Of a stretch of DNA of 64,000 bases, positions 13,153 to 63,820 are shown in pieces. Under the pieces are notes generated by a model that was not told the origin of the DNA, ran no database searches, and saw only the letters and a program-made list of their open reading frames with translations. The position numbers and the translations under genes are program-made. How positions within the stretch are numbered: the first letter of the stretch is position 1; each line of letters starts with the position of its first letter. Source of the stretch: an uncultured Eubacteriales bacterium (GTDB taxonomy: Bacteria; Bacillota; Clostridia; Peptostreptococcales; Anaerovoracaceae); contig ONRQ01000021.1 in the NCBI GenBank assembly GCA_900320285.1, positions 2,705 to 66,704 on the forward strand, in the 5' to 3' direction.

Positions 13153-13157
13153 GTTTT

Positions 13158-13889: not shown

Positions 13890-13896
13890 TAACCAT

Positions 13897-13923: not shown

Positions 13924-13940
13924 CATGTCAGTTTTATTTG

Positions 13941-15054: not shown

Positions 15055-15078
15055 TTAAACCAAGGAGATAATTCAAGA

Positions 15079-16260
15079 ATGAAGATTACAAATGATATCC
15101 TGTATGTAGGTGTCAATGATCATGACATCGACCTGTTTGAAGGCCATTATATCGTTCCTGAAGGAATGGCATACAATTCCTATGTCGTAAAAGGCGACAA
15201 GATTGCCGTCATGGATTCCGTTGACGGTCACTTTACAGATGAGTGGATCGGCAAGGTAAAAGAGGTTGCAGCTGCTCCTGACTACCTCGTCATCCAGCAT
15301 ATGGAGCCGGATCATTCCGGATCGATCATGGGATTCATGGAAGCATTCCCGGAGGCAAAGATAGTTTCGTCCCAGAAGGCTTTCACAATGATGGCGAACT
15401 TCTTTGAAGGTGAAGATTTTGCAGACAGAAGAGTCGTTGTAAAGGAAGGTGACACTCTCGACCTTGGCGGTCATGTTCTGAACTTCGTCACTGCACCGAT
15501 GGTACACTGGCCTGAGGTTATCATGACTTACGAATCAACAGATAAGGTGCTGTTCTCCGCAGACGCTTTCGGAAGATTCGGAGGACTCGACAAGATCGGC
15601 GAAACAAGCGAAGAGGACGATGACTGGGCATGCGAGGCAAGACGCTACTATTTCGGTATCGTCGGAAAGTACGGACCTCAGGTGCAGGCTGTTCTCAAAA
15701 AGGCTGCCGGGCTTGATATTGAGATCATCTGCGCACTTCACGGACCTGTACTCGTTTCTGATCTCGGCTATTACCTCGGCCTTTACGATACATGGTCGAA
15801 GTACGAGTCAGAGTCTCAGGGCGTTGTGATCGCTTACACTTCAGTATATGGCAACACTAAGAAAGCAGTTGAGCTCCTCGCTGAGAAGCTCGAGGCAAAG
15901 GGAGTACCTGCCGTAGAGGTTACGGACCTTGCAAGGGACGATATTGCTGAAGCTGTTGAAGACGCGTTCAGATATGACACGGTCGTATTTGCTACAACTA
16001 CTTTCAACAACGGCATCTTCCCGTTCATGAGAGAGTTCATCGAATCGCTGACTGAGCGCAACTATCAGAATAAGAGAGTCGCGTTCATTGAGAACGGATC
16101 ATGGGCACCGCAGGCTGCCAAAGTTATGAAGGGCATGCTCGAAGGCTGCAAAAACATGACATACTGCGAGAACGATGTAAAGATCGTTTCTGCGCTCAAT
16201 GATGACAGCAGGGCACAGCTTGAGGCTCTTGCTGAAGAGCTCGCAGCAGCTTACAAATAA
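15079..16260 (+). CDS. Flavodiiron protein (FprA-type; metallo-beta-lactamase-like + flavodoxin domains)
   Basis: VIQHMEPDHSG di-iron motif and a C-terminal flavodoxin-like region (VIAYTSVYGNTKK). Confidence 0.9.
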   Translation: MKITNDILYVGVNDHDIDLFEGHYIVPEGMAYNSYVVKGDKIAVMDSVDGHFTDEWIGKVKEVAAAPDYLVIQHMEPDHSGSIMGFMEAFPEAKIVSSQKAFTMMANFFEGEDFADRRVVVKEGDTLDLGGHVLNFVTAPMVHWPEVIMTYESTDKVLFSADAFGRFGGLDKIGETSEEDDDWACEARRYYFGIVGKYGPQVQAVLKKAAGLDIEIICALHGPVLVSDLGYYLGLYDTWSKYESESQGVVIAYTSVYGNTKKAVELLAEKLEAKGVPAVEVTDLARDDIAEAVEDAFRYDTVVFATTTFNNGIFPFMREFIESLTERNYQNKRVAFIENGSWAPQAAKVMKGMLEGCKNMTYCENDVKIVSALNDDSRAQLEALAEELAAAYK

Positions 16261-24413: not shown

Positions 24414-25496
24414 ATGAAAGAAGATAAAGCGATAACCGCCGTTGGAGTTCTGGCAGTGATACTGGGCCTGCTCATGATGTCTGTAGGCAGATTCATCATG
24501 GGCGGCATCACTCTGCTGATCGCGTTCGGAATTTTCTGGAACCGCGGCGGGGGAACCCGGAATGACCGCAGCATCTATGAGAAAATCGTAAAGACTGATA
24601 TGAGCATCACCGAGATCTACGAAAAGCTGAAGGATCTCGACACGCCGCTCGGAAAGCCATGGATAGCTGAACACAAGGGTTTCGCCGGTGAAAGCATCGT
24701 GTTCGGACCGTGCAGTTTCAAAGACTGCGTGGTGATTTCGCGAAGCAAAAATAACATCGATATAAAACATGTTACCAGGCTCGAGAACATCATCAGAAAA
24801 GAGGAAGACGAGTACAGGTTTGATAACCTGGTAAATCCGCAGGAAGCTGAAGTGACTCCTGAAAGATATGCAGTATTTGCCGGATTCAAGCTTGCGTCAG
24901 TTATGCTGGTAAGACACCTGACGGAGCTGATAGGAAAACTCCATGAGGACAGAGGTGCAAAGGTACCTGAGACCATGGACTTTTACAGGTTTTATTATCA
25001 CAATTCGGCCGAAGGTTACTTCAGGGATTCAGACGGCAATGACGTGCTCAGGGTAGAGACTTCACTGCGCCCGTTTACAGCAAAAGTATTCGATGCGGAT
25101 GGCAATGAGATGGCATCTGTGGTGCCTCACGCTTTCGATAAAAAGGGATACCCTGCAGAGTCTGCCGGCTTTGAGCTGTTCTCGGACGGAGAGCATTTCG
25201 GAGAGATCAGACGTTTCCGGGACTCACGCGGAGAAGGCTTTGAGGCAGATACCGATGCAGGAGTTTTCACAATGATACTCTTCCCGTCATGCATGAAGGC
25301 AAGGATCTCCTGCAACTACATGATAGAGCACGAGGGAAAGCTGAAAGCGGTTATCGGAGGCTCTCCGAATCTTCTGTTTGATGAGTATGGCAGGTGCAGA
25401 AATGACATCATAAATTCATATGATGATGACTATCTGGTACTCTACGCAATCGCTGAGATCTTCATACTTACAAACAACAGCAAGTTCCTTAAATAG
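24414..25496 (+). CDS. Hypothetical membrane-anchored protein
   Basis: 360-aa ORF with two N-terminal hydrophobic segments. I recognise no motif with confidence. Confidence 0.6.
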   Translation: MKEDKAITAVGVLAVILGLLMMSVGRFIMGGITLLIAFGIFWNRGGGTRNDRSIYEKIVKTDMSITEIYEKLKDLDTPLGKPWIAEHKGFAGESIVFGPCSFKDCVVISRSKNNIDIKHVTRLENIIRKEEDEYRFDNLVNPQEAEVTPERYAVFAGFKLASVMLVRHLTELIGKLHEDRGAKVPETMDFYRFYYHNSAEGYFRDSDGNDVLRVETSLRPFTAKVFDADGNEMASVVPHAFDKKGYPAESAGFELFSDGEHFGEIRRFRDSRGEGFEADTDAGVFTMILFPSCMKARISCNYMIEHEGKLKAVIGGSPNLLFDEYGRCRNDIINSYDDDYLVLYAIAEIFILTNNSKFLK

Positions 25497-49263: not shown

Positions 49264-49335
49264 TGCCGGAAACCGAATATGATGAATGCTGTTGCCCGCA
49301 GAAGGGCAGCAGCATTTTGTATAAGAACAGAAACT

Positions 49336-49896
49336 ATGATCAAAGAAAAAGGGCAGAAACCTGGAATAGATGAACTTGCGGCTCTTGCGAAAGAAGCCGG
49401 CTTTACTTATGCTGTGACGCTGGATATGGATTCACTTGAGTTCATGGAAGAAGTCCGCAGCATGTGTTCTGCAGACCGCTGCAAGAGCTACGGCAAAAGC
49501 TGGAGCTGTCCGCCTGCAATAGGGAGTGTTGAAAGAGCGAAAGAACGTGCTGAAGCATATCACCGCGGAATATTAGTCCAGACTGCAGGAACCCTTGCGG
49601 ACAGCTTCGATATGGACGGTACTGCGGCAATAATGAAGAAGCACAGAAAGAATTTTGATACACTGGTAAGGCAGGTAAAATATTTTTATCCGGACTGCCT
49701 GCCTATGGGAGCCGGCACATGCAGGATCTGCCGCTCGTGCACTTACCCTGACAGGCCATGCAGGCATCCTGACAAAATGATTTCCTCCATGGAGGCTTAC
49801 GGACTCCTGGTGAGCGACGTGGCAATAAAATCAGGGCTAAAGTATAATTATGGTGAAAACACGATGTGCTTCACATCATGTGTGCTGATTGACTGA
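49336..49896 (+). CDS. DUF2284-like predicted metal-binding (Cys-rich) protein
   Basis: CSADRCKSYGKSWSCPP and CRICRSCTYPDRPCRHP cysteine clusters. The start (49336 or 49279) is uncertain and has no clear SD. Confidence 0.7.
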   Translation: MIKEKGQKPGIDELAALAKEAGFTYAVTLDMDSLEFMEEVRSMCSADRCKSYGKSWSCPPAIGSVERAKERAEAYHRGILVQTAGTLADSFDMDGTAAIMKKHRKNFDTLVRQVKYFYPDCLPMGAGTCRICRSCTYPDRPCRHPDKMISSMEAYGLLVSDVAIKSGLKYNYGENTMCFTSCVLID

Positions 49897-49909
49897 AAGG
49901 GTGTTATAC

Positions 49910-51658
49910 ATGACAGCAAAAGAGATTTTTCTTGAATTACTTAAACCGGATGGGAAACCGGAGCGGCAGCTGGTGCAGTATGAAGCGCTTCAGATGGCTC
50001 TTGGTGATCCGATTGGCGGGTATCTGCATATGGGGAGAATGCCCGGCGCTACCATCACAGACCGTTGGGGTACAGTGATAGAGTGGCCGGCTGATGCTCC
50101 CGGGTCAATGCCTCTTGTAACTGATGAAAACAAAGTGATTAAGGATATAACCAGATGGCGTGATTATGTGCATGCACCGGAGTTTATTTCTCACAGCAGT
50201 GACCCGGAGGCCTGGGCGGCATTACGCGCTAAAACCAGAGAGCGCGCCGGTGATGAACGCCTGGTAGCAGGCTTCATGGCTACGGGCATCTTTGAGCAGT
50301 GCCATTTTCTGATGCCGTTCAAAGATGTGCTGACAAATCTCTATGACCATCCGAAGGAAATGCATGAGCTGATAGACTATATCACTGAGTTCAGACTTGC
50401 CTATGTGAAGCATCTTATAGAGAATCTGAAGCCTGATGTGATCTTTTCGCATGATGACTGGGGTACAAAAGATGCTCTCTTTATGAAGCCGGATATGTGG
50501 CGTGAGTTCTTCAAGGAGCCTTACCGCAGATTCTATGGATACATAAGGGAGCAGGGCGTAATTGCGATACATCACGCCGATTCCTATCTTGCACCTATTG
50601 TTGAAGACATGGCTGAGATAGGTATACAGGTATGGCAGGGAGTTCTTCCGGAGAACGACATACCGGCACTGCAGCAGAGACTTAAAGGCCGCATGGTGCT
50701 GATGGGAGGTATTGGAGCTGCAATCGACAGAGAGGATGCAGGCGAGGAAGAGGTGCGCAGGTATGTACATGATGCTCTTCATGAATACTGCCCGGGCGGG
50801 CACTTCATACCATCGATAACATACGGCCTTGCGGGTACTGTGTATAAACATGTGGACCCGTGGATAGACGATGAGATAAGAAAATATAATGAGGGAATTC
50901 ATCTTCCTAGATATACTTCTCCGTCAGCAGAGAGAAAGAACCCTGTGAAGCTTGGCATTGCTGCTGCAGATGTGGAAAAAGAGACCGTTAAAGCTGAATT
51001 AAAGCCTGAAACAAAGACCGGAACGACAATCTTTGATGAGATATCTGAAGCTCTGCAGGAGGGTGATGTCAGCGCTACTGTTAAAGCTGTGAAGACCGCT
51101 CTTGAACATGGCGAGGATGCTCAGGCTGTTTTGACTGGAGGACTGGTACGCGGAATGAACGAGCTGGGTGAGGATTTTTCACTTGGAGAAGTGTTCGTAC
51201 CGGAAATGCTGAGAGCCGCAAACTGCATGTCAGCTGCAACAGAGATACTTAAGCCGCTTCTTACGGGCGGAGCAGGAGGCATTGCTGCAGGCAAAGTATG
51301 TCTGGGAACAGTAAGAGGCGACCTGCATGATATAGGCAAGAACCTCGTGAAGATAATGATGGAGGGAAGCGGCCTTGAAGTCATAGATCTCGGCTGTGAT
51401 GTAAGCGCCGAAGACTTCATACAGGCTGCTATCGACAGCGATTGCGATATAATCGCGTGCTCTACTCTGCTGACGACAAGCATGGGTGAGATAGACCGTG
51501 TGGTAAAACTGGCCAAAGAGAGAAACATACGCGATAAGGTGAAGATACTGATCGGCGGCGCGCCTGTTACGCAGGAATTCTGCGAACAGACCGGCGCTGA
51601 CATGTACACGCCGGACGCGGCAGCCGCCGCGCGCGCCGCAATTCAGATGCTGTCCTGA
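49910..51658 (+). CDS. UroD/MtaA-superfamily methyltransferase domain fused to a cobalamin-binding (cap + Rossmann) domain; CmuA-like architecture
   Basis: The N-terminal ~340 aa are URO-D-like (FSHDDWGTKD..., IHHADS...). The C-terminus has a B12 cap (VPEMLRAANCM) and GDLHDIGKNLV (DxHxxG), CSTLLTTS (SxL) and ILIGGAPV (GG). Confidence 0.8.
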   Translation: MTAKEIFLELLKPDGKPERQLVQYEALQMALGDPIGGYLHMGRMPGATITDRWGTVIEWPADAPGSMPLVTDENKVIKDITRWRDYVHAPEFISHSSDPEAWAALRAKTRERAGDERLVAGFMATGIFEQCHFLMPFKDVLTNLYDHPKEMHELIDYITEFRLAYVKHLIENLKPDVIFSHDDWGTKDALFMKPDMWREFFKEPYRRFYGYIREQGVIAIHHADSYLAPIVEDMAEIGIQVWQGVLPENDIPALQQRLKGRMVLMGGIGAAIDREDAGEEEVRRYVHDALHEYCPGGHFIPSITYGLAGTVYKHVDPWIDDEIRKYNEGIHLPRYTSPSAERKNPVKLGIAAADVEKETVKAELKPETKTGTTIFDEISEALQEGDVSATVKAVKTALEHGEDAQAVLTGGLVRGMNELGEDFSLGEVFVPEMLRAANCMSAATEILKPLLTGGAGGIAAGKVCLGTVRGDLHDIGKNLVKIMMEGSGLEVIDLGCDVSAEDFIQAAIDSDCDIIACSTLLTTSMGEIDRVVKLAKERNIRDKVKILIGGAPVTQEFCEQTGADMYTPDAAAAARAAIQMLS

Positions 51659-51681
51659 TAACAAGAAACAGAGGAAAAGAT

Positions 51682-52899
51682 ATGGAATTATACTTCCCGC
51701 TCATACTTGACGGAGCAAACGGAACAGAGCTTCAGAAGAGGGGCTTTGACGGAAGCAAATGCACCGAGGCGTGGGTTCTCGAGCACCCTGAAGTGATGAA
51801 AAAGCTGCAGGAGGAATACATAGAAGCCGGCAGTGACATTGTTTATGCGCCTACATTCGGAGCCAACAGGGTAAAGCTCGAAGAGAACGGCATATTCAAT
51901 ATGGCAGGTGATTTCAACAGACGTCTTGTGGAGATATCCAAAGAAGCTGCGGCCGGAAAGGCTCTTGTAGCAGGCGATATAGCTACAAGCGGCAAGTTCC
52001 TGGCGCCTCTTGGAGACATCACATTCGGTGAGCTTTACGATATCTACCATGAGCAGGCTGAAGCGATGGAAGAGGCTGGGGTGGATATGTACGTGATAGA
52101 AACTATCATGACAGTGCCGGATGCGCGTGCTGCGCTGTTGGCAGTGAAGGATGTGAGCGACAAGCCTGTCCTCGTTTCATTCACATGCGATGAGAACGGC
52201 CGTACACTTACGGGATCCGATGTGAGGGCGGCCCTTGTAATACTGCAGGGCATGGGAATCGATGCTTTCGGACTCAACTGCAGCACAGGTCCTGCAGAGA
52301 TGCTTGAGCAGGCGAAGCGTCTGCGCGATCTCGCCGAAGTACCTGTCGCTATAAAGCCTAATGCAGGTCTGCCTAAGACTGTAAACGGAGAAACAGTCTA
52401 TGACTGTCCTCCGGACGAATTCGTTAAGCATACAAAAGAGTTCATAGAGCTCGGCGGCGCGCTCTTCGGAGGCTGCTGCGGCACGGGTCCTGAGCACATC
52501 GCGAAGATAGCGCCTGAGCTTGAGGGTTTTAAGCTCAGAAAACCTGATCCTCAGTATAGAGATAAGATAGTCTGCGCTACCGAAAAGGATGTGTTCATAC
52601 TTGAACCGGGTATTGAGGCAGGTGAGATCATCGAATGCGGTCCTGACCTTGAGGAACAGATAAGAAAAGCCAATAAAAGCGATTCGCAGATCATCACAAT
52701 AAAGATAGCCTGCGAGCCTGATATCGATGAGTTTGAAGCAGCTCAGTACGCGATACGTAAGCCGTTATGTATTGTCTGCGATGATACGGCGCTTCTTTCC
52801 GAAGCACTGATGCTTTATCAGGGCAGAGCACTTTATGCCGGAAACCTTTCTGATGAAGAGCTCGCTCCGATGGTACGCAGATACGGACTGATCATATGA
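51682..52899 (+). CDS. Homocysteine S-methyltransferase-domain protein (MetH Hcy-module-like) with a ~125-aa C-terminal extension
   Basis: LDGANGTELQ start, and Zn-ligand motifs GLNCSTGP and GGCCGTGPEHI. Starts 23 nt after the corrinoid fusion gene. Confidence 0.8.
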   Translation: MELYFPLILDGANGTELQKRGFDGSKCTEAWVLEHPEVMKKLQEEYIEAGSDIVYAPTFGANRVKLEENGIFNMAGDFNRRLVEISKEAAAGKALVAGDIATSGKFLAPLGDITFGELYDIYHEQAEAMEEAGVDMYVIETIMTVPDARAALLAVKDVSDKPVLVSFTCDENGRTLTGSDVRAALVILQGMGIDAFGLNCSTGPAEMLEQAKRLRDLAEVPVAIKPNAGLPKTVNGETVYDCPPDEFVKHTKEFIELGGALFGGCCGTGPEHIAKIAPELEGFKLRKPDPQYRDKIVCATEKDVFILEPGIEAGEIIECGPDLEEQIRKANKSDSQIITIKIACEPDIDEFEAAQYAIRKPLCIVCDDTALLSEALMLYQGRALYAGNLSDEELAPMVRRYGLII

Positions 52900-53726
52900 T
52901 GCAAAAGCGAGAGAATATGAATTCAGAAAATGAACTGCTTGTCGTGAGCTTCGGTACAACTTCAGCTGAAAGCCGCCGGCTGAATATAGAATCCGTAGAG
53001 CAGGCTATACAGGAAATTGCGGGGGAAAGCTGGAAAGTATGCAGATGCTTCACCTCACAGACCATTATTAATATCATAGCCGGAAAGGAAGGCTGCAGAA
53101 TCGACAACATTGCCGAAGCACTTGAAAGAGCCGCTGCCGCAGGCGTAAAGAATCTGGTCGTACAGCCTACACATCTGATGAAAGGGCTGGAGTACGATAA
53201 GCTTTGCTGTATACTTGCGAAGTATTCAGGCTCATTCGCCAGGGTTGCTATAGGTGATCCGCTCTTCACATCCGATGAGGACTATTACAGAGTCGCAGAT
53301 GCAATCATCGAAGCTTCGACAGAGTATGAGGACAGCGGGACAGCGCTTGTATTCATGGGCCACGGTACGGAAGCAGCTGCAAACGGAATCTATGAAAAGC
53401 TTCAGAGCGTATTGAACTGCAAGGGAAAAGACGATTACTACATAGGTACTGTTGAAGCGACACCTTCTTTGAATGATGTGATCAGGGCTGTCGGTGAGGG
53501 AAGCTATAAAAGAGTGGTTCTGAGGCCGCTGATGCTTGTGGCCGGAAATCATGCAGTTAACGATATGGCTTCAACTATGGATCCGGATTCCTGGTATTCA
53601 CGCTTTTGTGCGGATGGATATGAGACCGTATGCATTATAGAAGGCCTGGGACAGATATCAGCTGTCCGTGATATTTATGCAGATCATGCTTATAAAGCAA
53701 TCGCATCGCTGGAAATACAGTTATAA
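52896..53726 (+). CDS. cbiK: Sirohydrochlorin cobaltochelatase CbiK-type protein (cytoplasmic)
   Basis: LLVVSFGTT, VVQPTHLM.G.EYD, FMGHGTE and LRPLMLVAGNHAVNDM. ATGA overlap with the upstream gene. Confidence 0.85.
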   Translation: MMQKRENMNSENELLVVSFGTTSAESRRLNIESVEQAIQEIAGESWKVCRCFTSQTIINIIAGKEGCRIDNIAEALERAAAAGVKNLVVQPTHLMKGLEYDKLCCILAKYSGSFARVAIGDPLFTSDEDYYRVADAIIEASTEYEDSGTALVFMGHGTEAAANGIYEKLQSVLNCKGKDDYYIGTVEATPSLNDVIRAVGEGSYKRVVLRPLMLVAGNHAVNDMASTMDPDSWYSRFCADGYETVCIIEGLGQISAVRDIYADHAYKAIASLEIQL

Positions 53727-54091: not shown

Positions 54092-54126
54092 GCCCTTTTT
54101 ACCGTGAGTGGAAAAAGGCTTTTTTA
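54092..54126 (+). terminator. Riboswitch expression-platform terminator
   Basis: GCCCTTTTT-accgtgagtg-GAAAAAGGC hairpin (one bulge) followed by TTTTTT, 46 nt before the next ATG. Confidence 0.6.
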
Positions 54127-54171
54127 ATGATAAAGCCAGAATGAATTCATAGTTAAAAGGAGAATGTTGAC

Positions 54172-55398
54172 ATGAAGAAAAAGTTATTGGTTTTGATGCT
54201 TGGACTCGCAATGATCCTCTCATTCTCGCTTCTGACCGCATGCGGAAGCAATGAGGAAGCTGCACCTGAAGAAGAGGCTGCAGATCCTGTCGCAGAATGC
54301 GCTGCACTGATCGATGCTATCTATGTTCAGGAGTACACAGATGAGACATATGCTCAGTGTGAGGCTGCAAAGGCAGCGTGGGATGCTCTGACAGATGAGC
54401 AGAAGGAGCAGGTTGAAGGCGAAGAAGCAAGTCCTGATTACTTCGGAAGAGATACAGGTGATGCTTCCAAGGACGATCCTCTTAACCAGGATGATATAGG
54501 TGAAAATGAACTCCTGGTGGTAAGCTTCGGCACATCGTTCAATGACAGTCGTACAGAAGATATAGGCGGTATCGAGAAAGCTCTTCAGGAGGCAAATCCT
54601 GACTGGTCAGTCAGAAGAGCATTCACAGCTCAGATCATCATCAATCACATATATGCACGTGACGGCGAGAAGATCGACAATGTTGATCAGGCTCTTCAGA
54701 GAGCTGTTGACAACGGAGTAAAGAACCTCGTTGTTCAGCCGACTCACCTGATGCATGGCGCGGAGTATGATGAACTGATCGGTACACTTGACGGCTATAA
54801 AGATAAATTCGAAACTGTTAAGGTCGCAGAGCCGCTGCTTGGTACTGTAGGTGAGGACGCAACTGTGGTCAATGCTGACAAGGAAGCAGTTGCACAGGCT
54901 GTAGTTGCACAGGCTGTTTCTGAGTCAGGATTCGATTCACTCGATGCAGCAGCTGCAGATGGTACTGCATTCGTATTCCTGGGACATGGTACTTCCCACC
55001 AGGCCGCAGTTACTTACGATCAGATGCAGGAGCAGATGAAGCAGCTCGGATACGGCAATGTATTCGTAGGAACTGTAGAAGGAAAGCCTGAAGACACAGC
55101 ATTCCCTGCAGTAAAGAAGGCGCTTGAGGAAGCCGGATATACAAAGGTCATCCTCAGACCTCTGATGGTAGTTGCCGGAGACCACGCAAACAATGACATG
55201 GCCGGTGATGAAGAAGGCACATGGTACTACGGTTTTGTCAACGGCGGCGAATTCGAAGTTGAAGGCGCTGATGAAGCTGTAGATACAGGCGCGGGACTCG
55301 GTGCTGACAATGTAAACTGCCAGATCGAAGGCCTCGGAAGAATCGAAGACGTACAGAAGCTCTATGTTGATCACACTGCTGAAGCAATGGCTCAGTAA
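54172..55398 (+). CDS. Lipoprotein with an extracytoplasmic CbiK-like chelatase domain
   Basis: Lipobox LLTAC after a signal peptide and a ~95-aa acidic N-terminal module. Then LLVVSFGTS, VVQPTHLMHGAEYD, FLGHGTSH and LRPLMVVAGDHANNDM. Confidence 0.85.
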   Translation: MKKKLLVLMLGLAMILSFSLLTACGSNEEAAPEEEAADPVAECAALIDAIYVQEYTDETYAQCEAAKAAWDALTDEQKEQVEGEEASPDYFGRDTGDASKDDPLNQDDIGENELLVVSFGTSFNDSRTEDIGGIEKALQEANPDWSVRRAFTAQIIINHIYARDGEKIDNVDQALQRAVDNGVKNLVVQPTHLMHGAEYDELIGTLDGYKDKFETVKVAEPLLGTVGEDATVVNADKEAVAQAVVAQAVSESGFDSLDAAAADGTAFVFLGHGTSHQAAVTYDQMQEQMKQLGYGNVFVGTVEGKPEDTAFPAVKKALEEAGYTKVILRPLMVVAGDHANNDMAGDEEGTWYYGFVNGGEFEVEGADEAVDTGAGLGADNVNCQIEGLGRIEDVQKLYVDHTAEAMAQ

Positions 55399-55407
55399 GA
55401 AGTGCGA

Positions 55408-56250
55408 ATGAAAAACTTTAAACTATCAAAAATACTATTATATGCTGTGCTGGTTGTATCCGTACTCATGCTGGCGGGATGCGGCAGTACAGAAAAGGCA
55501 GCTGATCCGGGTATCGCCGATGGCACTTATGTTGCGACCTTTACGACGGATAACTCGATGTTCCACGTCAATGAGGCGCACCAGGATAAAGGAATATTGA
55601 CAGTCGAGGACGGGAAAATGACTATTCATGTCAGCCTCCAGTCCAAGAAGATAGTCAATCTTTATCCGGGACTAGCTGAGGATGCTAAGAAAGAAGGCGC
55701 TGAGCTGCTTGAACCTACCACCGATAAAGTTGTTTACAGCGATGGCTATGAAGACGAGGTGTACGGATTTGACATTCCGGTGCCTGCACTTGATGAGGAG
55801 TTCGATGTAGCGCTTATAGGTACTCACGGCAACTGGTACGACCACAAGGTCGTTGTATCTGACCCTGTAGAAGGCGACGACATTCAGGCGGTCATCAATG
55901 GCGGAGCTGAAGGTGAAAGCAGCGCGGCAACTGACATTGAAGATGGTGAGCACACTGTGGAGGTCACGCTCGAAGGCGGTACAGGCAAAGCTTCTATAGA
56001 CAGCCCTGCTGTACTGCGCAAAAGCGGAGATGAGTACACTGCAGTCATCACCTGGAGCAGTCCTTACTACGACTATATGATAGTAGACGGGCAGAGATAC
56101 GAACCGGTGAACACTGACGGCAATTCAGTATTCGAGATACCGGTCTCATCTCTCGACAGCCCGCTGGAAGTGATCGCCGATACTACGGCGATGAGCGAGC
56201 CGCATGAGATCGAATATACGATCAGATTCGATCCGGCCTCGATCAAATAG
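55408..56250 (+). CDS. Lipoprotein of unknown function with two related ~110-aa modules
   Basis: Lipobox MLAGC. Module starts are ADGTYVATFT...LTVEDGKMTIHVSL and EDGEHTVEVTL...LRKSGDEYTAVITWSS. Confidence 0.7.
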   Translation: MKNFKLSKILLYAVLVVSVLMLAGCGSTEKAADPGIADGTYVATFTTDNSMFHVNEAHQDKGILTVEDGKMTIHVSLQSKKIVNLYPGLAEDAKKEGAELLEPTTDKVVYSDGYEDEVYGFDIPVPALDEEFDVALIGTHGNWYDHKVVVSDPVEGDDIQAVINGGAEGESSAATDIEDGEHTVEVTLEGGTGKASIDSPAVLRKSGDEYTAVITWSSPYYDYMIVDGQRYEPVNTDGNSVFEIPVSSLDSPLEVIADTTAMSEPHEIEYTIRFDPASIK

Positions 56251-56312
56251 TTCAGATGATGCAGGGATACTGTTACACTTGGGCGGTATCCCTGCATTCG
56301 CTTATATCATTC

Positions 56313-57470
56313 ATGAAAAAAAACAGAATAATAACAGCAATAATAACACTGACGCTTGTGTTTGCTCTTGCAGGCTGCAGCGGAGATAGTGCAGACAGTG
56401 CAGGCAGCGAATGGGAAGGGCACCTCACGGGATCGATGGAGCTGAAGTATGCAGATCAGTTCCACGTTGATTACTATGAGGATGGTATTTCGGTGGTCAC
56501 GGTAGAAGATGGTCTCAGGTATCTTGTCACAGAGGATGCAGATAATTTGCCGGAATGGCTGCCTGAAGACGAAATCAATGATATGACCGTCATTAAAGCA
56601 CCGGTTCATTCTGTATATAATGCCGCATCTTCGGCAATGGACCTTATTGACGCAGCAGGAGGTCTGGACTCTGTAGTTATGACAAGCACTCAGGCGGGTG
56701 ACTGGGGCATAGACAAGATAAAAAAGCTTGTTGAAAACGATACTATCCGATACATCGGAAAATACCGCGCGCCTGATTATGAAGCTCTTCTCGAGGGCGA
56801 TGTGGATCTCGCAATAGAGTCCACCATGATATACCACAGTCCGCAGGTAAAGGAAGTGATTGAGGAGCTGGGGATTCCGGTCCTTGTGGAGAGGTCAAGC
56901 TATGAATCAAACCCTCTGGGAAGGCTTGAATGGATAAGACTGTACGGACTTCTTTTCGGAAAGGACGATGAAGCTCAGGCGTTTTTCGACGAGGCTGTGG
57001 CAAAGGTGGAAGGCGTGGATACGGATACCATAGCCCAGGCGCCTTCAGTTGCATTCTTCTCAGTAAATTCAAACGGCTCTGTGGTCGTGAGAAAGCCGGG
57101 TGACTATGTAACAAAGATGATAGAAACGGCCGGAGGGACTTATGCCCTTGACGGCATTACAAGTGAAGAAGACAATGCGCTTTCAACCATGAACATGCAG
57201 ATGGAAGCGTTCTATGATAAAGCTGTTGATGCTGATATACTCATCTATAACAGCACCATCGAAGGCGGCCTGGAGGAAATGAGTGACCTAACGGCGCTTT
57301 CGGATAAATTCAACGATTTTGCAGCGGTTAAGAGCGGAAATGTATGGTGCACTGATGCCAGCACTTTCCAGCGGACCACCGGTGCGGCTGATATGATCGT
57401 TGAAATGAATAAGATCTTTGCAGGCGCCGCGGATGACAGCGGCATGGAGTATTTCCACAAGCTGAAGTAA
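56313..57470 (+). CDS. ABC transporter substrate-binding lipoprotein (BtuF/FecB class, cluster A)
   Basis: Lipobox ALAGC. Size and pattern fit siderophore/cobalamin-binding proteins, and FecCD permease and ATPase genes follow. Confidence 0.8.
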   Translation: MKKNRIITAIITLTLVFALAGCSGDSADSAGSEWEGHLTGSMELKYADQFHVDYYEDGISVVTVEDGLRYLVTEDADNLPEWLPEDEINDMTVIKAPVHSVYNAASSAMDLIDAAGGLDSVVMTSTQAGDWGIDKIKKLVENDTIRYIGKYRAPDYEALLEGDVDLAIESTMIYHSPQVKEVIEELGIPVLVERSSYESNPLGRLEWIRLYGLLFGKDDEAQAFFDEAVAKVEGVDTDTIAQAPSVAFFSVNSNGSVVVRKPGDYVTKMIETAGGTYALDGITSEEDNALSTMNMQMEAFYDKAVDADILIYNSTIEGGLEEMSDLTALSDKFNDFAAVKSGNVWCTDASTFQRTTGAADMIVEMNKIFAGAADDSGMEYFHKLK

Positions 57471-57485
57471 ACGGCGGGTGACTTG

Positions 57486-58490
57486 ATGAAAAGCAGCAGG
57501 ATCAAAGCGTGCTACGCTTTGCTGGGAGTGTTGCTCCTTGCACTGATACTACTGAATATACTTATAGGAAGCTCCTCAATGACTATGGGAGATGCTTTGA
57601 GGATCCTCTTTTCGCATGACACGGTATCCAAATACGGCAAGATCGTATGGGACATCCGCATGCCGAGGATTCTTGCGGCGGCTCTTCTCGGAGGAGCTCT
57701 TTCTGTATCCGGATTTCTGCTGCAGACGTTCTTTGCAAATCCGATTGCCGGCCCGTATATACTCGGTATCTCATCGGGTGCCAAGCTTGTAGTAGCATGT
57801 GCAATGATATTCGCGCTGAGCCACGGCATAATGGTGCATTCCCTTGTGATGATAATCGCTGCATTTGCGGGCTCACTGGTGGTCACAGGAGTGATCCTTC
57901 TGATCTCAGGCAAGGTAAAAAGCATGGCTGTCCTGATTGTTTGCGGCGTCATGGTCGGCTACATATGCTCTGCGATCACGGAGTTTCTCGTCACATTCGC
58001 TGACGATTCCAACATAGTCAATCTGCACAACTGGTCGATGGGAAGCTTTTCGGCTGTCAGCTGGGACAACATCAGGGTGATCACTCTGGTCGTACTGATA
58101 GCAGTGGTCGTCTCGTTCCTGCTTTCAAAGCCGATGAACGCTTTTCAGATGGGAGAGCAGTATGCAGTCAGTGTAGGAGTAAACCTCCGCTCGTTCAGGA
58201 TCGGCCTGATAACTCTTTCAAGCATCCTGTCAGCGACAGTTACGGCTTTTGCAGGCCCGATATCGTTTGTAGGCATCGCAGTACCGCATATCATCAGATC
58301 GATCACTGACACGTCAAAGCCGGTGGTCATGATACCGCAGTGCTTCCTGGGCGGTTCGGTGTTCTGTCTCTTCTGCGACCTGCTGGCAAGGAGCCTGTTT
58401 GCGCCGACTGAGATGAGCATCAGTTCGATGACAGCTGTATTCGGAGCTCCGGTAGTGATAGCTATGCTTATCGGAAGAAAGAAGAGGTGA
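57486..58490 (+). CDS. FecCD/BtuC family ABC permease
   Basis: RMPRILAAALLGGALSVSGFLLQ...NPIAGPYILGISSGA is the hallmark FecCD motif. Confidence 0.9.
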   Translation: MKSSRIKACYALLGVLLLALILLNILIGSSSMTMGDALRILFSHDTVSKYGKIVWDIRMPRILAAALLGGALSVSGFLLQTFFANPIAGPYILGISSGAKLVVACAMIFALSHGIMVHSLVMIIAAFAGSLVVTGVILLISGKVKSMAVLIVCGVMVGYICSAITEFLVTFADDSNIVNLHNWSMGSFSAVSWDNIRVITLVVLIAVVVSFLLSKPMNAFQMGEQYAVSVGVNLRSFRIGLITLSSILSATVTAFAGPISFVGIAVPHIIRSITDTSKPVVMIPQCFLGGSVFCLFCDLLARSLFAPTEMSISSMTAVFGAPVVIAMLIGRKKR

Positions 58491-58495
58491 CACGT

Positions 58496-59281
58496 ATGGG
58501 ATCTGTTATCAGAACGGAACACCTCGATTCGGGGTACGGGCACAAGATAATAGTAGCCGGCGCGGAGATAGTCGTGCAGCCGGGTGAGATAGTGACACTG
58601 ATCGGACCAAACGGTGCAGGCAAATCGACTGTGCTCAAGACAATAGCGGGACAGCTCGAACCTATAGCCGGAACTATTTACATAGGGGACGAGGAACGCT
58701 CGACGTACAGCCTTACGGAAATTGCAAAAAAACAGGCGGTCATGCTCACCGAGAGAAATCCTGCAGAGAAGATGACATGTGAAGAGGTGATCTCACTAGG
58801 AAGATATCCGTACACGGGGAGACTTGGCATTCTTTCGGAAAATGATAAAAAAATCGTCCGGGATACCATGGAACTGGTGCATGTGACAGAGCTGGCTGAG
58901 CGCAGCTACGATCAGATAAGTGACGGACAGAGGCAGAGAGTATTGCTTGCAAGAGCGATTTGCCAGGAGCCTGAGATAATGATTCTGGATGAGCCGACAT
59001 CCTATCTGGACATAAGGCATAAGCTTGAGTTTCTCGATCTGCTGAGGAGCCTCACGCAGGAGAAGGAGATAGGCGTCATAATGTCGATGCATGAGCTTGA
59101 GCTTGCGCATCTGATTGCTGACAAGGTGATTTGTATTTCGGCTGCCGGAAAAGTGGAAAAGGTCGGAAGTCCTGAAGAGGTCTTTACTGACGAACTTATA
59201 AGCAGGCTGTACAGCCTCGGAGACGGAAGGCTCCGTGAAGTATATGCCGGTTTTGTAAAGAGTATAGAGAAAAATGGCTAA
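58496..59281 (+). CDS. ABC transporter ATP-binding protein (BtuD/FepC class)
   Basis: [16 protein letters not shown] and [10 protein letters not shown] motifs. Confidence 0.9.
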
Positions 59282-60767
59282 GGTAATAATGGTACAGGGC
59301 ACTATGTCCAATGCAGGCAAGAGCCTTCTTGCCGCAGGGCTGTGCCGCATATTCAGACAGGACGGATACAGAGTAGCGCCTTTCAAATCGCAGAACATGG
59401 CGCTCAATTCGTTCGCGACTAAAGAAGGGCTCGAGATGAGCCGCGCACAGGTGGTGCAGGCTGAAGCTGCCGGGACCGATCCTTTGGTATGCATGAATCC
59501 GATATTGCTGAAGCCGACGGACGACCAGGGCTCGCAGGTGATCATAAACGGAAAATCAATCGGCAATATGAAAGCCCGCGATTATTTCAGATTCAAGACA
59601 GAGCTGATACCTGTCATAAAGGAGGCTTTCCGAAAGCTCGAGGATCAGTTCGATATAATCGTGATTGAGGGAGCGGGCTCTCCGGCTGAGATCAATCTTA
59701 AGGAAAACGACATAGTTAATATGGGGCTTGCCGAAATGGTGGATGCCCCGGTACTTCTGGTCGGAGACATAGACAGAGGTGGTGTTTTCGCGCAGCTTCT
59801 CGGCACGCTGATGCTCCTTGAAGACAGCGAAAAAGAAAGAGTAAAGGGCCTCATAATAAATAAATTCAGAGGCGACGCATCGCTGCTCGACAGCGGTATA
59901 GAGATGCTTGAAGAAAAGGGCGGTGTGCCGGTAGTCGGTACTGTGCCGTATATAAACATAAAAGTGGAGGATGAGGATTCGCTTTCAGACAGGCTCTCCG
60001 CAAGCAGGAGAGGTCTTGTAGACATAGCAGTCGTACGACTTCCGAAGCTCTCAAACTTCACTGACTTCGATGTATTTGAACAATTTCCGGATGTATCGGT
60101 CAGATATGTCAGCGAGCTCGACGAACTCATGGGAGCAGACATGGTTATAATTCCGGGCTCAAAAAGCACGATAGCTGATCTTGAATGGATGCGTGAAAAA
60201 GGCATATCGGATGAGATCATAAGGCTGAGCAGAAAAGGGGTTCCGGTGTTCGGTATCTGTGGAGGATATCAGATGCTTGGGGTCGGAGTTTCAGATCCGG
60301 AGGGTGTTGAAGGCGGAGGAGAAGCTGAAGGCCTCGGTCTGCTTCCGGTTACGACGGTTCTTGCAGGAGACAAAAGAACGGAGCAGTTCCATGGATCCTT
60401 CTGTGCTGCAGATGGGATTTTTGCGGGACTGTCGGGCCTTGAAATCGAAGGTTACGAAATACATATGGGACAGACATTCCCTGAAGGCTGTATGGCTCAG
60501 TGCGCATCAGACTTTACATCGGATAATACCGGTGTGTGCGAAGGCAACGTTTACGGAACATACATACACGGAGTTTTTGACAGAGCAGGAGTAGCAGCTG
60601 CAGTAGTCAGCGCCCTTGCAGAGAAGAAGGGCGTAGTTCTCAGCGGCGGAGATGCTTCCGGCCACAGAGATTTTAAAGAGAAAGAATATGACAGGCTGGC
60701 GGCCATGCTCAGAGAAAATCTCGATATGGACTTTATCTACTCCATACTCAGGGAGGCAGCATTTTGA
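59274..60767 (+). CDS. cobQ: Cobyric acid synthase
   Basis: [23 protein letters not shown] and a C-terminal glutamine amidotransferase domain ([10 protein letters not shown]). Confidence 0.9.
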
Positions 60768-62353
60768 TTAATATAGTACCTTTTGACAGAGACACATATG
60801 ATGATATCAGAGCCCGATGGGACAGCATAGCGAAGCCGCTGAACAGTCTCGGCAGATTTGAGGAAATCACGGCGCGCATAGGTGCAGCGCAGGGCTCGGC
60901 TGAAATAGATATAAGGAAACGCGCGGTCATAATAATGTGCGCTGATAATGGCATAGTTGCTGAAGGAGTGAGTCAGTCCGGACAGGACGTGACCCGAGCT
61001 GTCGCCGAGTGGATGGGAAGGGGAGAGAGCTCTGTCTGCCAGATGGCAAAAGAGGCTAAAGCAGATACTATTCCTGTTGATGTAGGCATCAATATGGAAG
61101 GCAGCCCGAAGGGGGTCATAGACCGCAAAGTGATGAAGGGCACAAGGAACTTTGCGCATGAGCCTGCTATGACTGAAGATGAGTGCATGCAGGCTATAGA
61201 AGCTGGTATCGATATTGTCTGCGACTGCAGCGCCGGTGGCTATAAGCTGCTTGCTACAGGAGAAATGGGCATAGGCAATACTACAACAAGTTCGGCCCTT
61301 GTTGCAGCTCTTCTTGGCCTGGACGCTGATATTGTAACCGGCAGGGGTGCGGGCCTGAGTACCGAAGGACTCAGAAAAAAGACGCAGGTGATTCGCGATG
61401 CTCTTGAAAAATATGAACCTTCCGGTGATGCCGAAAGGACAAGTCCCGAGTACGCTATGCATATGCTCTCCTGTGTAGGGGGCCTTGATATAGCGGGACT
61501 CGCCGGAGTCTTTATCGGGGGTGCGATGAATCACATCCCCGTGATTATAGACGGCTTCATAAGCGCGGTAGCTGCTCTGATCGCTGAGAGGCTGGTGCCG
61601 GGAACCAGGAATTTCATGATAGCATCACACCTGGGAAAAGAGCCGGGTATGAAGTACATACTCGACATACTTGGTCTGGAACCTGTCATTGACGGTATGC
61701 TTGCGCTTGGCGAGGGTACCGGTGCTGTCATGCTCATGCCTTTGCTGGACACAGTGCTCGCTCTTTATTCAAACGGACTCAGCTTTGCAGATACGACGGT
61801 CGAGCAGTATCATGACTTTGATTCAGAGTCCGCGGGCGGTACCACTGTCTTTATCATCGGTACACCAAACAGTGGCAAGTCAGCCATGGCTGAGAAGATC
61901 GTAACAGAGCTGTCAGATCCTGAACACAGGATATACGTCGCTACGATGATCCCGTACGGAAAAGAGGGCAGGGAGCGTGTTGAGAGACACCGCATGATGA
62001 GATACGGCAAGGGCTTTATCACGATCGAAGCTCCTTTCGATATCTGCAGTGAACTTAGTGACTATAACATGAGTACCGGAAGCAGACTGGGCGATATGAC
62101 CGTACTTCTTGAATGCCTGTCAAATCTCGTTGCTAATGAGATGTTTGAAAGACGCTCCGACAGAGATGAAATGCTCGGAAGGCTGTATGAAGATATCAGA
62201 TGGATCGCGAAACGCGCGGGGAACCTCGTCATCGTAAGCAATCACTTTGAGATCGAAGAATCATTTGACGATGAGACCCGTTTTTATGCAGAGACGCTCG
62301 ATATGCTGAACGAAATGGTCAGCGGACTGGCCGATAAGACCATAAGGATATAA
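60764..62353 (+). CDS. cobT: Fusion of nicotinate-nucleotide:DMB phosphoribosyltransferase (CobT) and adenosylcobinamide kinase/guanylyltransferase (CobU)
   Basis: CobT: [28 protein letters not shown]. After ~350 aa, CobU: [12 protein letters not shown]-loop and ERHRMMR. TTG start after GGGAGG. Confidence 0.85.
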
Positions 62354-62359
62354 GGTAAG

Positions 62360-63148
62360 ATGAAACTACTGAGAGCCATAGCGGTCGCATTTGCGCAATA
62401 CTCGAGAATACCGGTGCCGCGCTTCGAGTGGAAAGAAGATGACATGCGTTACAGCATTGCCGCTTTTCCACTGGTCGGAGCAGTGATTGGCCTCGTGTTC
62501 TTTGGCGTGTTCAGATGCGCGGAACACTTTGCTCTGCCCGATACCGCAGCTGCACTCCTGCTGACCGCAGTACCACTCATCATAACCGGAGGCTTTCACG
62601 TCGATGGGTTCATGGATGTTGCTGATGCACTCAGCTCATATAAGACCAGAGAAGAAAAACTGGCTATTCTGAAGGACCCGCACATCGGAGCTTTTGCGGT
62701 CATAAGGCTGGCAATATGCGGCCTTATATACATCGCTTCGCTCATAATAGTGCTGGCATCGGATAGTGCACCGGGCCTCATATCAGGGATCGCAACAGGA
62801 TTCGTTCTTTCCAGATGCCTGAGCGCGCAGTCCGTCCTGAATTTCAGATCTGCAAAAAAAGAAGGCATGCTCTACTATGAAGCAACAGCAGCTGCCAAGG
62901 GTCGTAAAGTCAATATCACTATAGTTACGATTATCGCAGTAATAGCAGCATGGTTCATGGCGTTTTTTGCCTGGCCGGCAGGCTCGCTGCTGCTCTTCGC
63001 TGCGCTTTTGAGTTTTATATGGTACAAGCACATCAGCTATAAGCAATTCGGCGGCATAACCGGAGATACGGCAGGATATTTTGTCGTCATATGTGAGACT
63101 TCCATCGCTGCAGCCGCAGCTCTGGCATCAGTTGTATTACCGATATAA
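62360..63148 (+). CDS. cobS: Adenosylcobinamide-GDP ribazoletransferase (cobalamin synthase)
   Basis: Multi-TM protein with TGGFHVDGFMD and GGITGDTAG motifs. Confidence 0.9.
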   Translation: MKLLRAIAVAFAQYSRIPVPRFEWKEDDMRYSIAAFPLVGAVIGLVFFGVFRCAEHFALPDTAAALLLTAVPLIITGGFHVDGFMDVADALSSYKTREEKLAILKDPHIGAFAVIRLAICGLIYIASLIIVLASDSAPGLISGIATGFVLSRCLSAQSVLNFRSAKKEGMLYYEATAAAKGRKVNITIVTIIAVIAAWFMAFFAWPAGSLLLFAALLSFIWYKHISYKQFGGITGDTAGYFVVICETSIAAAAALASVVLPI

Positions 63149-63163
63149 AAGGCGGTGACCGGA

Positions 63164-63820
63164 ATGAAATGTTATCTTATCAGACACGGAATAACTGAAG
63201 GGAATAACGCGCTTCACTTCAATGGGAGCGGAACAGACGAGCCTCTGACAGAGGAAGGAAGGGAAGCTCTGAAAAAGATCGAAGGCGTGAAGCCTGGGTC
63301 GCTGCTTTTCGCAAGTCCAATGATAAGAGCCCGCGAGACTGCGGCTATAATGTTTCCGGATGCTAAACCTCTGATTATTGATGACCTAAGGGAGATGCAC
63401 TTTGGTATATTCGAGGGGAAAAACCACAGGATGCTTGACGGAGGCGCTGAATATCAGGCATGGCTTGACAGCGGCGGAGTGGATCCCATACCGGGAGGAG
63501 AAAGCATAGGGATCTTCCGCGAGAGAGCCTGGAAAGGCTTTAAGAAAGCGCTCAGAACAGCCGTAAACAAAGGAGTGGATACGATCTATCTGGTCGTTCA
63601 CGGAGGAACTATAATGGCTGTCATGAGTAGCCTGACAGGCAAAGACTATTTTGATTTCAACGCGCCAAACGGCGCAGGATATATTATCGAAGTGGAGACT
63701 GATGATGCAGGAAATGTCACTGCTGCAACTACATATGATCGCTTTTGCGGCGGGCTTCGTGCTGGATCTGATGGTTGGAGACCCCCACGGTATACCCCAT
63801 CCGATAGTATGGATAGGTAA
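63164..63820 (+). CDS. cobC: Alpha-ribazole phosphatase (histidine phosphatase family)
   Basis: LIRHGITEGN catalytic motif and VVHGG. Operon context fits. The last 86 nt overlap cbiB out of frame. Confidence 0.8.
   Translation: MKCYLIRHGITEGNNALHFNGSGTDEPLTEEGREALKKIEGVKPGSLLFASPMIRARETAAIMFPDAKPLIIDDLREMHFGIFEGKNHRMLDGGAEYQAWLDSGGVDPIPGGESIGIFRERAWKGFKKALRTAVNKGVDTIYLVVHGGTIMAVMSSLTGKDYFDFNAPNGAGYIIEVETDDAGNVTAATTYDRFCGGLRAGSDGWRPPRYTPSDSMDR

Follow-up and report, generated by a model that had tools for sequence, protein, structure and literature searches.

What does a cobaltochelatase do outside the cell, at the head of an operon under vitamin B12 control? This question is raised by a 64-kb stretch of DNA of Anaerovoracaceae origin (contig ONRQ01000021.1), the whole of which is called the window in the following. 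The open reading frame (ORF) at positions 54172-55398 (+) encodes a 408-amino-acid (aa) member of the CbiK family with a lipoprotein signal; it lies 3' of a cobalamin riboswitch and is followed by genes for a NEAT-like lipoprotein and an ATP-binding cassette (ABC) importer. Our analysis firmly supports the conclusion that the gene is real, that its product is an exported CbiK with an intact active site, that it belongs to the B12 regulon, and that it is the first part of a conserved NEAT-relay/ABC import module wired into cobamide synthesis. As to its function, we tentatively favour a reading in which the exported CbiK captures sirohydrochlorin outside the cell and probably loads it with cobalt, the product being relayed inward.

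Relatives were collected from a GTDB collection comprising one genome per species, which yielded at least 592 loci. Locus counts given below (L001-L080) rest on the best 80 of these, which show 60-95% overall identity to the query. They come from Lachnospiraceae (Butyrivibrio, Pseudobutyrivibrio, Roseburia, Blautia, Eubacterium ramulus, and others), Oscillospiraceae (Gemmiger formicilis, Faecalibacterium, Pseudoflavonifractor), and the window's own lineage Anaerovoracaceae, including a rumen metagenome-assembled genome (MAG) at 95% identity, as well as from Treponema MAGs of gut and rumen and from a single record with the label Thermoguttaceae. In the following, K denotes the exported CbiK, N1 and N2 the NEAT-like domains, F the substrate-binding protein, C the permease, and D the ATPase. 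Riboswitches are counted over 78 loci, since K lies at a contig edge in two of the 80, and signal peptides over the 78 untruncated K orthologues. Complete modules, 62-68% identical, also occur in the diderm-assigned records, namely the Thermoguttaceae record (L008) and three Treponema MAGs (L056, L065, L076), which points to horizontal transfer or mis-binning. If the host is a diderm, the K lipoprotein would be periplasmic or located at the outer membrane.

The exported CbiK and its riboswitch

The protein is composed of three parts. Residues 1-24 (54172-54243, +) form a lipoprotein signal peptide with a KKK n-region, a hydrophobic core, and the lipobox LTAC followed by G; the N-terminus, MKKKLLVLMLGLAMILSFSLLTAC followed by GS, reads as quoted in a preliminary description of the locus. 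An acidic module, delimited by its composition and its conservation in orthologues, spans residues 25-113 (54244-54510, +). The CbiK domain, assigned by Pfam and by alignments to Protein Data Bank (PDB) sequences as a class II sirohydrochlorin chelatase, occupies residues 114-408 (54511-55398, +).

The preliminary description had spoken of an acidic helical module of about 95 aa. Its acidic character stands, with 28 Asp and Glu against 4 Lys and Arg and an isoelectric point of 4.05. The length has to be corrected to 89 aa, and the helices (residues 39-49, 57-71, and 75-81) are predicted with low confidence. No Pfam family matches the module. Conserved elements are a helical motif, LIDAIYVQ..TD.T..QC..AK.AWDALTD.QK, which includes the conserved cysteine C63, and a linker, DYFG.DTGDAS.DDP.N.D.IGE, immediately N-terminal to strand one of the CbiK domain. 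Among 1.84 billion representative proteins, 488 matched the query below 1e-30. Many of these are homologues of 500-1600 aa in which the match starts at about query residue 28-45; thus, acidic module and CbiK domain travel together. The module may act as a tether, as a docking site, or as a lid over the cleft.

That the protein contains a full CbiK-like domain, as had been stated, is borne out by PF06180, which covers residues 114-406 with model positions 3-261 of 262 (212.4 bits, E=9.5e-63, cut-off 26.2 bits). The NCBIfam equivalog model for CbiK, NF047852, assigns 163 bits to the query and 194 bits to a cytoplasmic paralogue in the same window, both below its cut-off of 400. Judged by sequence, membership in the CbiK family is secure, but it does not automatically imply equivalent function. 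Among PDB sequences, the surface protein FetB of Porphyromonas gingivalis matches best (9b86, E=9.7e-32); further matches are Salmonella CbiK (1qgo, 107 bits) and CbiK(P) of Desulfovibrio vulgaris (2xvx, 97.8 bits). In the PDB sequence alignments, H272, E303, and H338 of the query coincide with H145, E175, and H207 of Salmonella CbiK, of which H145 and H207 matter for cobalt insertion (PMC7689651). All 18 chelatase residues that were checked, among them H272, E303, H338, H192, R127, R148, and R149, are invariant in 80 of 80 orthologues, and the conserved set covers residues of the tetrapyrrole cleft as well as the metal ligands. An AlphaFold2 (AF2) model of the protein, based on 45 close homologues, reached a mean predicted local distance difference test (pLDDT) value of only 62.6, with active-site loops below 50, and was set aside. 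The C-terminal lobe also carries an acidic, Gly-rich insert of 28 residues (aa 356-383, 55237-55320), VNGGEFEVEGADEAVDTGAGLGADNVNC, which is specific to the window's clade; the cytoplasmic paralogue and most distant homologues lack it.

An export signal is a constant property of the orthologues. Each of the 78 untruncated proteins has a signal peptide, mostly with a lipobox and in seven cases of the AxA type, and from these signals we infer that the 54172-55398 protein is located at the surface. All 43 long homologues contain CbiK; their additional domains comprise fn3 (7), SLH (3), choline-binding repeats (2), NEAT (2), CWB2, and Big_2, i.e., surface and wall-anchoring domains of Gram-positive bacteria. 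In one of the 43 (P0249), CbiK is fused directly to a Peripla_BP_2 binding protein.

One may object that K occupies the usual place of cbiK beside cbiL and the ring genes and has kept its catalytic residues, so that it might be the pathway's own cytoplasmic chelatase, the N-terminal extension not being a working signal. We consider this highly improbable. Besides the canonical lipobox and AxA signals, there are parts fused to NEAT-like domains or to the lipoprotein binding protein, homologues with SLH, CWB2, and choline-binding anchors, and a separate, signal-less paralogue in the same window. The universal signal peptides and the fusions to extracytoplasmic domains led us to reject a cytoplasmic location.

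The paralogue (52896-53726, +) lies upstream of the riboswitch and is 47% identical to the exported CbiK. The signature His motifs of both proteins had been quoted correctly: FLGHGTSH and VVAGDHANNDM in the exported protein, FMGHGTEA and LVAGNHAVNDM in the cytoplasmic one. Its start at 52896 overlaps the stop (52899) of a gene with an S-methyltransferase domain, which in turn lies downstream of a DUF2284 gene and of a UroD-like/B12-binding fusion; the whole segment (49279-53726, +) resembles a corrinoid-dependent methyltransferase cluster that ends in a chelatase gene. A signal-less CbiK just 5' of the riboswitch is also present in L001 and L003.

K is indeed the first gene 3' of the riboswitch, in accordance with the preliminary description. 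The cobalamin aptamer RF00174 (53793-53986, +) scores 115.8 bits (E=2.4e-28, full model 1-189, cut-off 31.5 bits) and is the sole Rfam match in the window. Two further elements of the leader were read from its sequence, a ribosome-binding site, AAAGGAGA (54156-54163, +), 8 nt 5' of the ATG, and a weak, possible expression-platform hairpin, GCCCUUUUUACC...GGAAAAAGGC, then UUUUUU (54092-54125, +). In isolation, the hairpin has a folding energy of -8 kcal/mol (z=-0.75) and is not called by a consensus terminator scan; in the longer leader there is a competing fold (z=-2.9). An intrinsic terminator after the riboswitch was set aside because of the weak hairpin and the negative scan.

Among the relatives, Rfam detected a Cobalamin riboswitch just 5' of K in all seven diverse loci inspected, and an nhmmer profile derived from these riboswitches found 74 loci. 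Rfam re-confirmed the riboswitches of L004 and L058 and, of the loci missed by nhmmer, rescued a single one, L071, where the AdoCbl variant RF01482 (50.7 bits, 9840-9963) replaces the classical Cobalamin model before K. Taken together, a B12 riboswitch precedes K in 75 of the 78 assessable loci (Rfam and nhmmer combined), while none was found upstream of K in L063, L069, and L075. Signal peptide, gene, and riboswitch recur in dozens of species and thus are not a product of chance. The linkage of exported CbiK homologues to B12 riboswitches, to which the preliminary description had drawn attention, is therefore widespread, and these data support membership of the homologues in the B12 regulon rather than in a haem or iron regulon. 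A consistent link to haem or iron, which according to the preliminary description would have spoken against its proposal, was looked for in this way and not seen. Two other RNA elements in the set appear unrelated, a c-di-GMP-I riboswitch in the E. ramulus locus (L007, 1943-2018) and a Clostridiales-1 small RNA (L069, 13508-13680).

The NEAT-like partner and the importer

K had been described as lying directly upstream of a BtuFCD-like importer. This does not hold, since the gene at 55402-56250 (+) lies in between. It encodes a lipoprotein of 282 aa in which two NEAT-like beta-sandwich domains are arranged in tandem, N1 (about aa 35-157) and N2 (about aa 180-282). Neither this tandem partner nor the relay architecture that it implies is contained in the preliminary description.

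With 30.9 bits, the Pfam NEAT match of this protein stays below the cut-off of 32.8, and many homologues have a precomputed PF05031 match. Compared with PDB sequences, a profile search gave no meaningful match (one lipoprotein at E=0.34) and a single-sequence search gave no match. Structure is more informative: In an AF2 model the domains have pLDDT values of 80-92, and Foldseek assigns them to the NEAT domains of IsdH, IsdB, IsdX1, IsdX2, and IsdC in the PDB with probability 1.00, the best match being IsdH N2N3 (E=6.7e-8) and the single-domain template modelling scores reaching 0.70 (IsdX1). As modelled, the 55402-56250 protein has a NEAT fold.

The protein is highly conserved, with the motif TDSSMFHV...WYDHKV in N1 and the motifs GGSGKA...WSSP.YDYM...AMS.PHEIEY in N2. 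In both domains the canonical haem-iron ligand motif of NEAT domains, YxxxY, is altered. The last strand of N1 reads W-Y146-D-H148-K-V150 (YDHKV), its counterpart in IsdC being Y-D-H-H-Y by our own reading rather than by structural superposition. That of N2 reads P-H268-E-I-E-Y272 (HEIEY), with H268 conserved in 90% or more of the wider set. Tyr146/His148 and His268/Tyr272 are possible candidates for axial ligands.

Three genes complete the module: a substrate-binding lipoprotein (56256-57470, +; Peripla_BP_2, PF01497, 101.7 bits), which probably starts at the ATG at 56313 (MKKNRII...LAGC), a FecCD/BtuC-type permease (57483-58490, +; PF01032, 263 bits), and the ABC ATPase (58487-59281, +; Pfam ABC_tran, 104 bits). 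Peripla_BP_2 protein, FecCD permease, and ATPase in one operon constitute a BtuFCD-type (type II) importer set. For the binding protein, no close PDB relative was found by sequence and NCBIfam gave only a faint IsdE match.

After the riboswitch, the order K-N-F-C-D is preserved nearly everywhere in the 80 loci. K, N1, N2, and F never change their order, and adjacent parts are found fused: N1-N2 in 35 loci, N2-F in 24, K-N1 in 21, and N1-N2-F in three. As all fusions obey one order, they provide Rosetta-stone evidence for a chain that leads from K via N1, N2, and F to the permease. The association of the exported CbiK with a type-II ABC importer is thus supported by gene order and by domain fusions. 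By analogy, the module may follow the logic of the Isd system, placed under B12 control. A variant is seen in L010 (13752-18894), where a second cobalamin riboswitch precedes the gene for a 1595-aa protein that unites a binding-protein domain and NEAT-like domains; next come a plain binding protein and a permease, giving two binding proteins per permease, and L004 shows likewise.

The resemblance to Isd brings up haem or iron acquisition, i.e., an Isd-like relay with a haem-binding or dechelating protein of the CbiK(P)/IhtB kind at its head. Such a function would suit the name of the best PDB match, 'heme-binding protein FetB', as well as the NEAT fold of a partner that is called 'iron transporter' by NCBI, although the gene sits in a B12 regulon. 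It is very unlikely to be correct, given the cobalamin riboswitches in 75 of 78 loci, neighbours that are cobamide genes rather than iron or haem genes, and the altered YxxxY motifs of N1 and N2. The riboswitch and the neighbouring genes were decisive for its rejection.

Corrin-ring genes, precursor salvagers, and the cargo

To characterize the neighbourhood, unlabelled flanking ORFs were clustered and representatives were scanned with Pfam and NCBIfam. K-N-F-C-D is contiguous and on the same strand with corrin-ring genes in 25 of the 80 loci, the adjoining genes being CbiC, CbiD, CbiF, CbiG, CbiH, CbiJ, CbiE/T, CbiA, and CbiL. In L008, a gap-free run CobD-CbiC-CbiD-CbiF-CbiG-CbiH-CbiJ/E/T-CbiA-CbiL extends up to the riboswitch; in L077, L071, L073, L060, and others, ring genes stand directly 3' of D. 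A second CbiK-type gene adjoins in none of the 25 ring-linked loci (phmmer search of the flanks with CbiK-type queries only, CbiX not being searched), except for the signal-less second CbiK of L004 and L005. Gene by gene, the gap-free ring clusters of L008 and L077 contain no other chelatase, CbiX elsewhere in the flanks not having been searched. The ATPase is moreover fused to biosynthetic enzymes, forming a single ORF with CbiD in Gemmiger formicilis (L073, 13613-16183) and with CbiP, the cobyric acid synthase, in eight loci (L016, L035, L061, L065, L068, L076, L079, L080). Such fusions tie transport physically to the pathway.

Genes for the cobalt transporter CbiM/N/Q are not among the recurrent neighbours in the 80 loci, and the module occupies the usual place of a cobalt transporter in cbi operons. 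Together with the invariant metal ligands, and with the precedent of CbtJKL in Sinorhizobium meliloti, a BtuF-like, riboswitch-controlled cobalt ABC importer (PMC7689651), this could mean that the surface CbiK merely captures Co2+ for a CbtJKL-like importer which replaces CbiMNQO. We regard this as improbable. Transport of a free ion leaves two conserved domains of a tetrapyrrole-binding fold unexplained, as well as the conservation of the tetrapyrrole-cleft residues, and for carriers that lack precorrin-2 synthesis cobalt alone does not suffice to make a cobamide.

These carriers lead to the nature of the cargo. Shelton et al. (2019) defined "tetrapyrrole precursor salvagers" as bacteria in which the ring and loop pathways are complete and early steps are missing; of the salvager types, they checked only the 5-aminolevulinic acid (ALA) type by experiment. 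All five early functions are absent in the precorrin-2 type, to which about 64 of about 11,000 species belong (their Supplementary Table 10). Three carriers of the module are on this list, Lachnospiraceae AC2012 (L079), Lachnospiraceae MA2020 (L015), and Gemmiger formicilis (L073), and they come from the few named isolates among the 80 loci. Further species of this type are Faecalibacterium prausnitzii, Subdoligranulum variabile, and Hespellia stercorisuis, as well as Treponema sp. JC4, T. denticola, T. pedis, and T. putidum (Shelton et al. 2019). At the genus level, Faecalibacterium, Hespellia, and Treponema match our loci, and no Subdoligranulum locus is among the 80. P. gingivalis likewise lacks the steps to precorrin-2 (Shelton et al. 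2019). Such species need an external tetrapyrrole at the level of sirohydrochlorin or later. The exported-CbiK module is the sole tetrapyrrole-type uptake machinery in the cbi clusters of the carriers, and sirohydrochlorin is the substrate of the enzyme at its head.

The course of events that we favour, with due reservation, would be the following. When cobamide is scarce, the riboswitch would permit expression of the operon. CbiK at the surface would bind sirohydrochlorin (factor II) in its inter-domain cleft, the compound being taken from the surrounding community or, possibly in some species, exported by the cell itself. The His272/Glu303/His338 site would insert Co2+, for which ATP is not needed. 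The cobalt-tetrapyrrole would then pass to the two NEAT-like domains, with Tyr146/His148 and His268/Tyr272 as possible axial ligands, and on to the binding protein; once it is pumped into the cell, CbiL would take over, followed by the remaining enzymes of the anaerobic corrin pathway. Extracellular metal insertion had been a secondary idea of the preliminary description. It is favoured by the invariant catalytic residues, by the ring clusters without another CbiK-type gene (save L004 and L005), and by hosts that are listed in the literature as precorrin-2 auxotrophs.

On a wider scale, it is possible rather than probable that cobalt insertion by a lipid-anchored CbiK outside the cell, with import of cobalt-sirohydrochlorin by the NEAT relay and the siderophore-type ABC transporter, is the missing entry route of the precorrin-2-type salvagers. 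The group concerned would be composed of Faecalibacterium, Gemmiger, many Lachnospiraceae, and rumen and oral Treponema, with FetB/Iht of P. gingivalis as a parallel. Makers of sirohydrochlorin with an adjacent ABC-2 exporter (L004, L005, L006) might use the tetrapyrrole as a secreted 'cobaltophore' that is re-imported in the metal-loaded state.

L005 illustrates the latter arrangement. A second module (7110-15233; also in L004, L006, and L069) contains a methylase similar to CbiL, an ABC ATPase, a permease of the ABC-2 (exporter) type, a signal-less CbiK of 302 aa, and a NEAT-like protein that has a signal at its N-terminus and a membrane anchor at its C-terminus; in L005 it is followed by a SirC-like gene, HemC, CobA-HemD, and HemB. 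This arrangement hints at export followed by re-import.

Several observations speak against extracellular cobalt insertion with import of the product. The same locus, L005, possesses the exported CbiK together with HemB, HemC, CobA-HemD, the SirC-like gene, and the signal-less CbiK, so the module is not confined to precorrin-2 auxotrophs. In the window, a cytoplasmic CbiK adjoins the exported one and would be redundant if only a pre-metalated product were imported. The only external precursors cited by Shelton et al. (2019) are uroporphyrin III and ALA, sirohydrochlorin and precorrin-2 being undocumented in gut and rumen. Finally, in at least 20 loci only late genes are found downstream (CbiP, CobT, CobU, CobS, CobC); these loci, as well as the eight loci with a single ATPase-CbiP ORF, fit the salvage of later corrinoids equally well.

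The window itself shows this late pattern. D is followed by CbiP/CobQ (59274-60767, +), a CobT-CobU fusion (60764-62353, +), CobS (62360-63148, +), and a CobC-like phosphatase (63155-63820, +), all assigned by Pfam, and no corrin-ring genes were found in the scanned ORFs of the window, those at about 25.5-40.4 kb lying outside the scan.

A strong rival, possible if somewhat doubtful, is that the protein captures corrinoids. CbiK would then have been re-used as a binder of cobamides or incomplete corrinoids (cobinamide, cobyric acid, cobyrinic acid), which it would pass via the NEAT-like domains to the BtuFCD-type importer; the hand-over may resemble that of BtuG/H/J/K, and the conserved His may coordinate the corrin cobalt. 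Control by a B12 riboswitch and the BtuF/BtuC/BtuD-like importer agree with this, and in the window and at least 20 loci the operon runs on into CbiP-CobT-CobU-CobS-CobC(-CbiB-CobD). Salvage of cobinamide, cobyrinate diamide, and cobyrinate has been predicted for gut genomes (PMC6593275), and extracellular cobamide capture by Gram-positive bacteria is an acknowledged gap in knowledge (PMC13616437). Two distant homologues, P0186 and P0194, have lost the His/Glu/His residues, as would be expected of pure binders. Together with the late-gene neighbours and the ATPase-CbiP fusions, these degenerate homologues favour corrinoid capture. On the other hand, for a mere binder one would not expect all catalytic and cleft residues to stay invariant in 80 species, and de novo ring-synthesis clusters, which the module heads, would be needless beside a corrinoid importer. 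The named carriers need an early tetrapyrrole, for which no other uptake route is evident in their clusters. Finished cobamides, with both axial positions filled, would also be expected to fit the Tyr/His pairs of the NEAT-like domains poorly. As for surface corrinoid handling after the manner of BtuG/BtuH, the role first proposed for this protein, export signal, B12 regulon, and importer linkage agree with it, and there is no homology to BtuG/BtuH.

Elsewhere in the window, two long ORFs lack a Pfam match at E<=1e-5, one of 987 aa (6337-9300, -), which overlaps with shorter + strand ORFs and is possibly not a gene, and one of 360 aa (24414-25496, +).

Relation to known systems

We searched the open-access literature for earlier accounts. 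No joint description of NEAT domains with cobalamin, cobamides, or corrinoids was found there, an earlier account being possible, nor of a riboswitch-controlled CbiK lipoprotein, nor of an uptake route for precorrin-2 or sirohydrochlorin. The combination of a lipid- or wall-anchored CbiK plus acidic module, tandem NEAT-like domains, a type-II importer, and a cobalamin riboswitch appears in no searchable open-access paper. The same applies to its spread in gut and rumen Clostridia, to its position at the head of corrin-ring operons, and to its presence in precorrin-2 auxotrophs. Exported CbiK paralogues as such (CbiK(P), FetB/IhtB), haem relays with NEAT domains, and surface cobamide relays of Bacteroides are already known.

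Two questions become testable: from which source bacteria with the ring pathway, but without the steps to precorrin-2, obtain their starting tetrapyrrole, and what purpose exported CbiK paralogues serve, the latter question being as old as the description of CbiK(P) and IhtB. Extracellular cobamide capture by Gram-positive gut bacteria is "entirely uncharacterized" according to a 2026 review (PMC13616437); in contrast, the module is present in at least 592 loci, including those of dominant butyrate producers. If precursor uptake with extracellular chelation is true, the module would represent a new kind of cross-feeding based on early tetrapyrroles, the first non-haem NEAT relay, and an extracellular step of vitamin synthesis. 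If corrinoid capture is true, it would be the first surface cobamide-capture system of Gram-positive bacteria. The automatic names "sirohydrochlorin cobaltochelatase" and "iron transporter" probably distort genome-based predictions of B12 producers and auxotrophs.

Cytoplasmic CbiK of Salmonella enterica (1qgo/2xwp) shares the domain, the His/Glu/His site, and the place beside cbiL and ring genes with K, but has no signal peptide, N-terminal module, or transporter partners. CbiK(P) of D. vulgaris (2xvx) is closer in being an exported paralogue that has kept the chelatase site and exists alongside a cytoplasmic CbiK. Its inter-subunit haem ligand, which we take to be His96 (Romao et al. 2011), presumably corresponds to position 96 of the 2xvx chain, which aligns with Asp200 of the query. 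Unlike the query, CbiK(P) is a periplasmic protein of a Gram-negative host that makes its own sirohydrochlorin, and it lacks the lipid anchor, the acidic module, and NEAT partners. Control of cbiK-cbiL together with btuCDF by one B12 element in Desulfovibrio was noted in 2004 (PMC545781).

CbtJKL of S. meliloti resembles the importer part, as a BtuF-like binding protein and an ABC importer under a cobalamin riboswitch supply cobalt for B12 synthesis; its substrate is taken as Co2+, and a chelatase or NEAT component is not described. BtuG, BtuH, BtuJ, and BtuK of Bacteroides are likewise riboswitch-controlled surface lipoproteins which pass a B12-family molecule to a transporter. In contrast to K they are non-enzymatic binders of finished cobamides that feed the outer-membrane BtuB; BtuG is a beta-propeller, BtuJ a jelly-roll. 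No homology to these proteins (e.g., to DUF4465 of BtuJ) was detected in the Pfam scan of both lipoproteins, which gave only CbiK/CbiX and NEAT; K is related to them neither in sequence nor in fold, and any likeness is one of function.

FetB/IhtB of P. gingivalis, encoded with IhtACDE, is likewise a surface lipoprotein of the CbiK family that is encoded together with a FecCD-type ABC importer. FetB is a working chelatase for Co and Mn in vivo and in vitro and is needed for the formation of Mn-protoporphyrin IX in vivo (PMC13065792), and the iht operon does not respond to starvation for iron or haem. It differs from the query in its location at the outer membrane and in the TonB-dependent receptor that takes the place of the NEAT relay; it has been studied as a haem and porphyrin protein, and a B12 riboswitch is not reported for FetB/Iht in the literature searched.

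The Isd relay (IsdH/B, IsdA, IsdC, IsdE, IsdF), finally, shares the logic of the module, which leads from a surface receptor via NEAT domains and a binding lipoprotein to a FecCD-type permease. In the module, however, B12 riboswitches take the place of Fur and iron, and a chelatase replaces the NEAT haemoprotein receptor at the head. Its NEAT-like domains have altered ligand motifs, lipid anchoring is used, with no sortase signals seen, and the cargo is presumably a cobalt tetrapyrrole.

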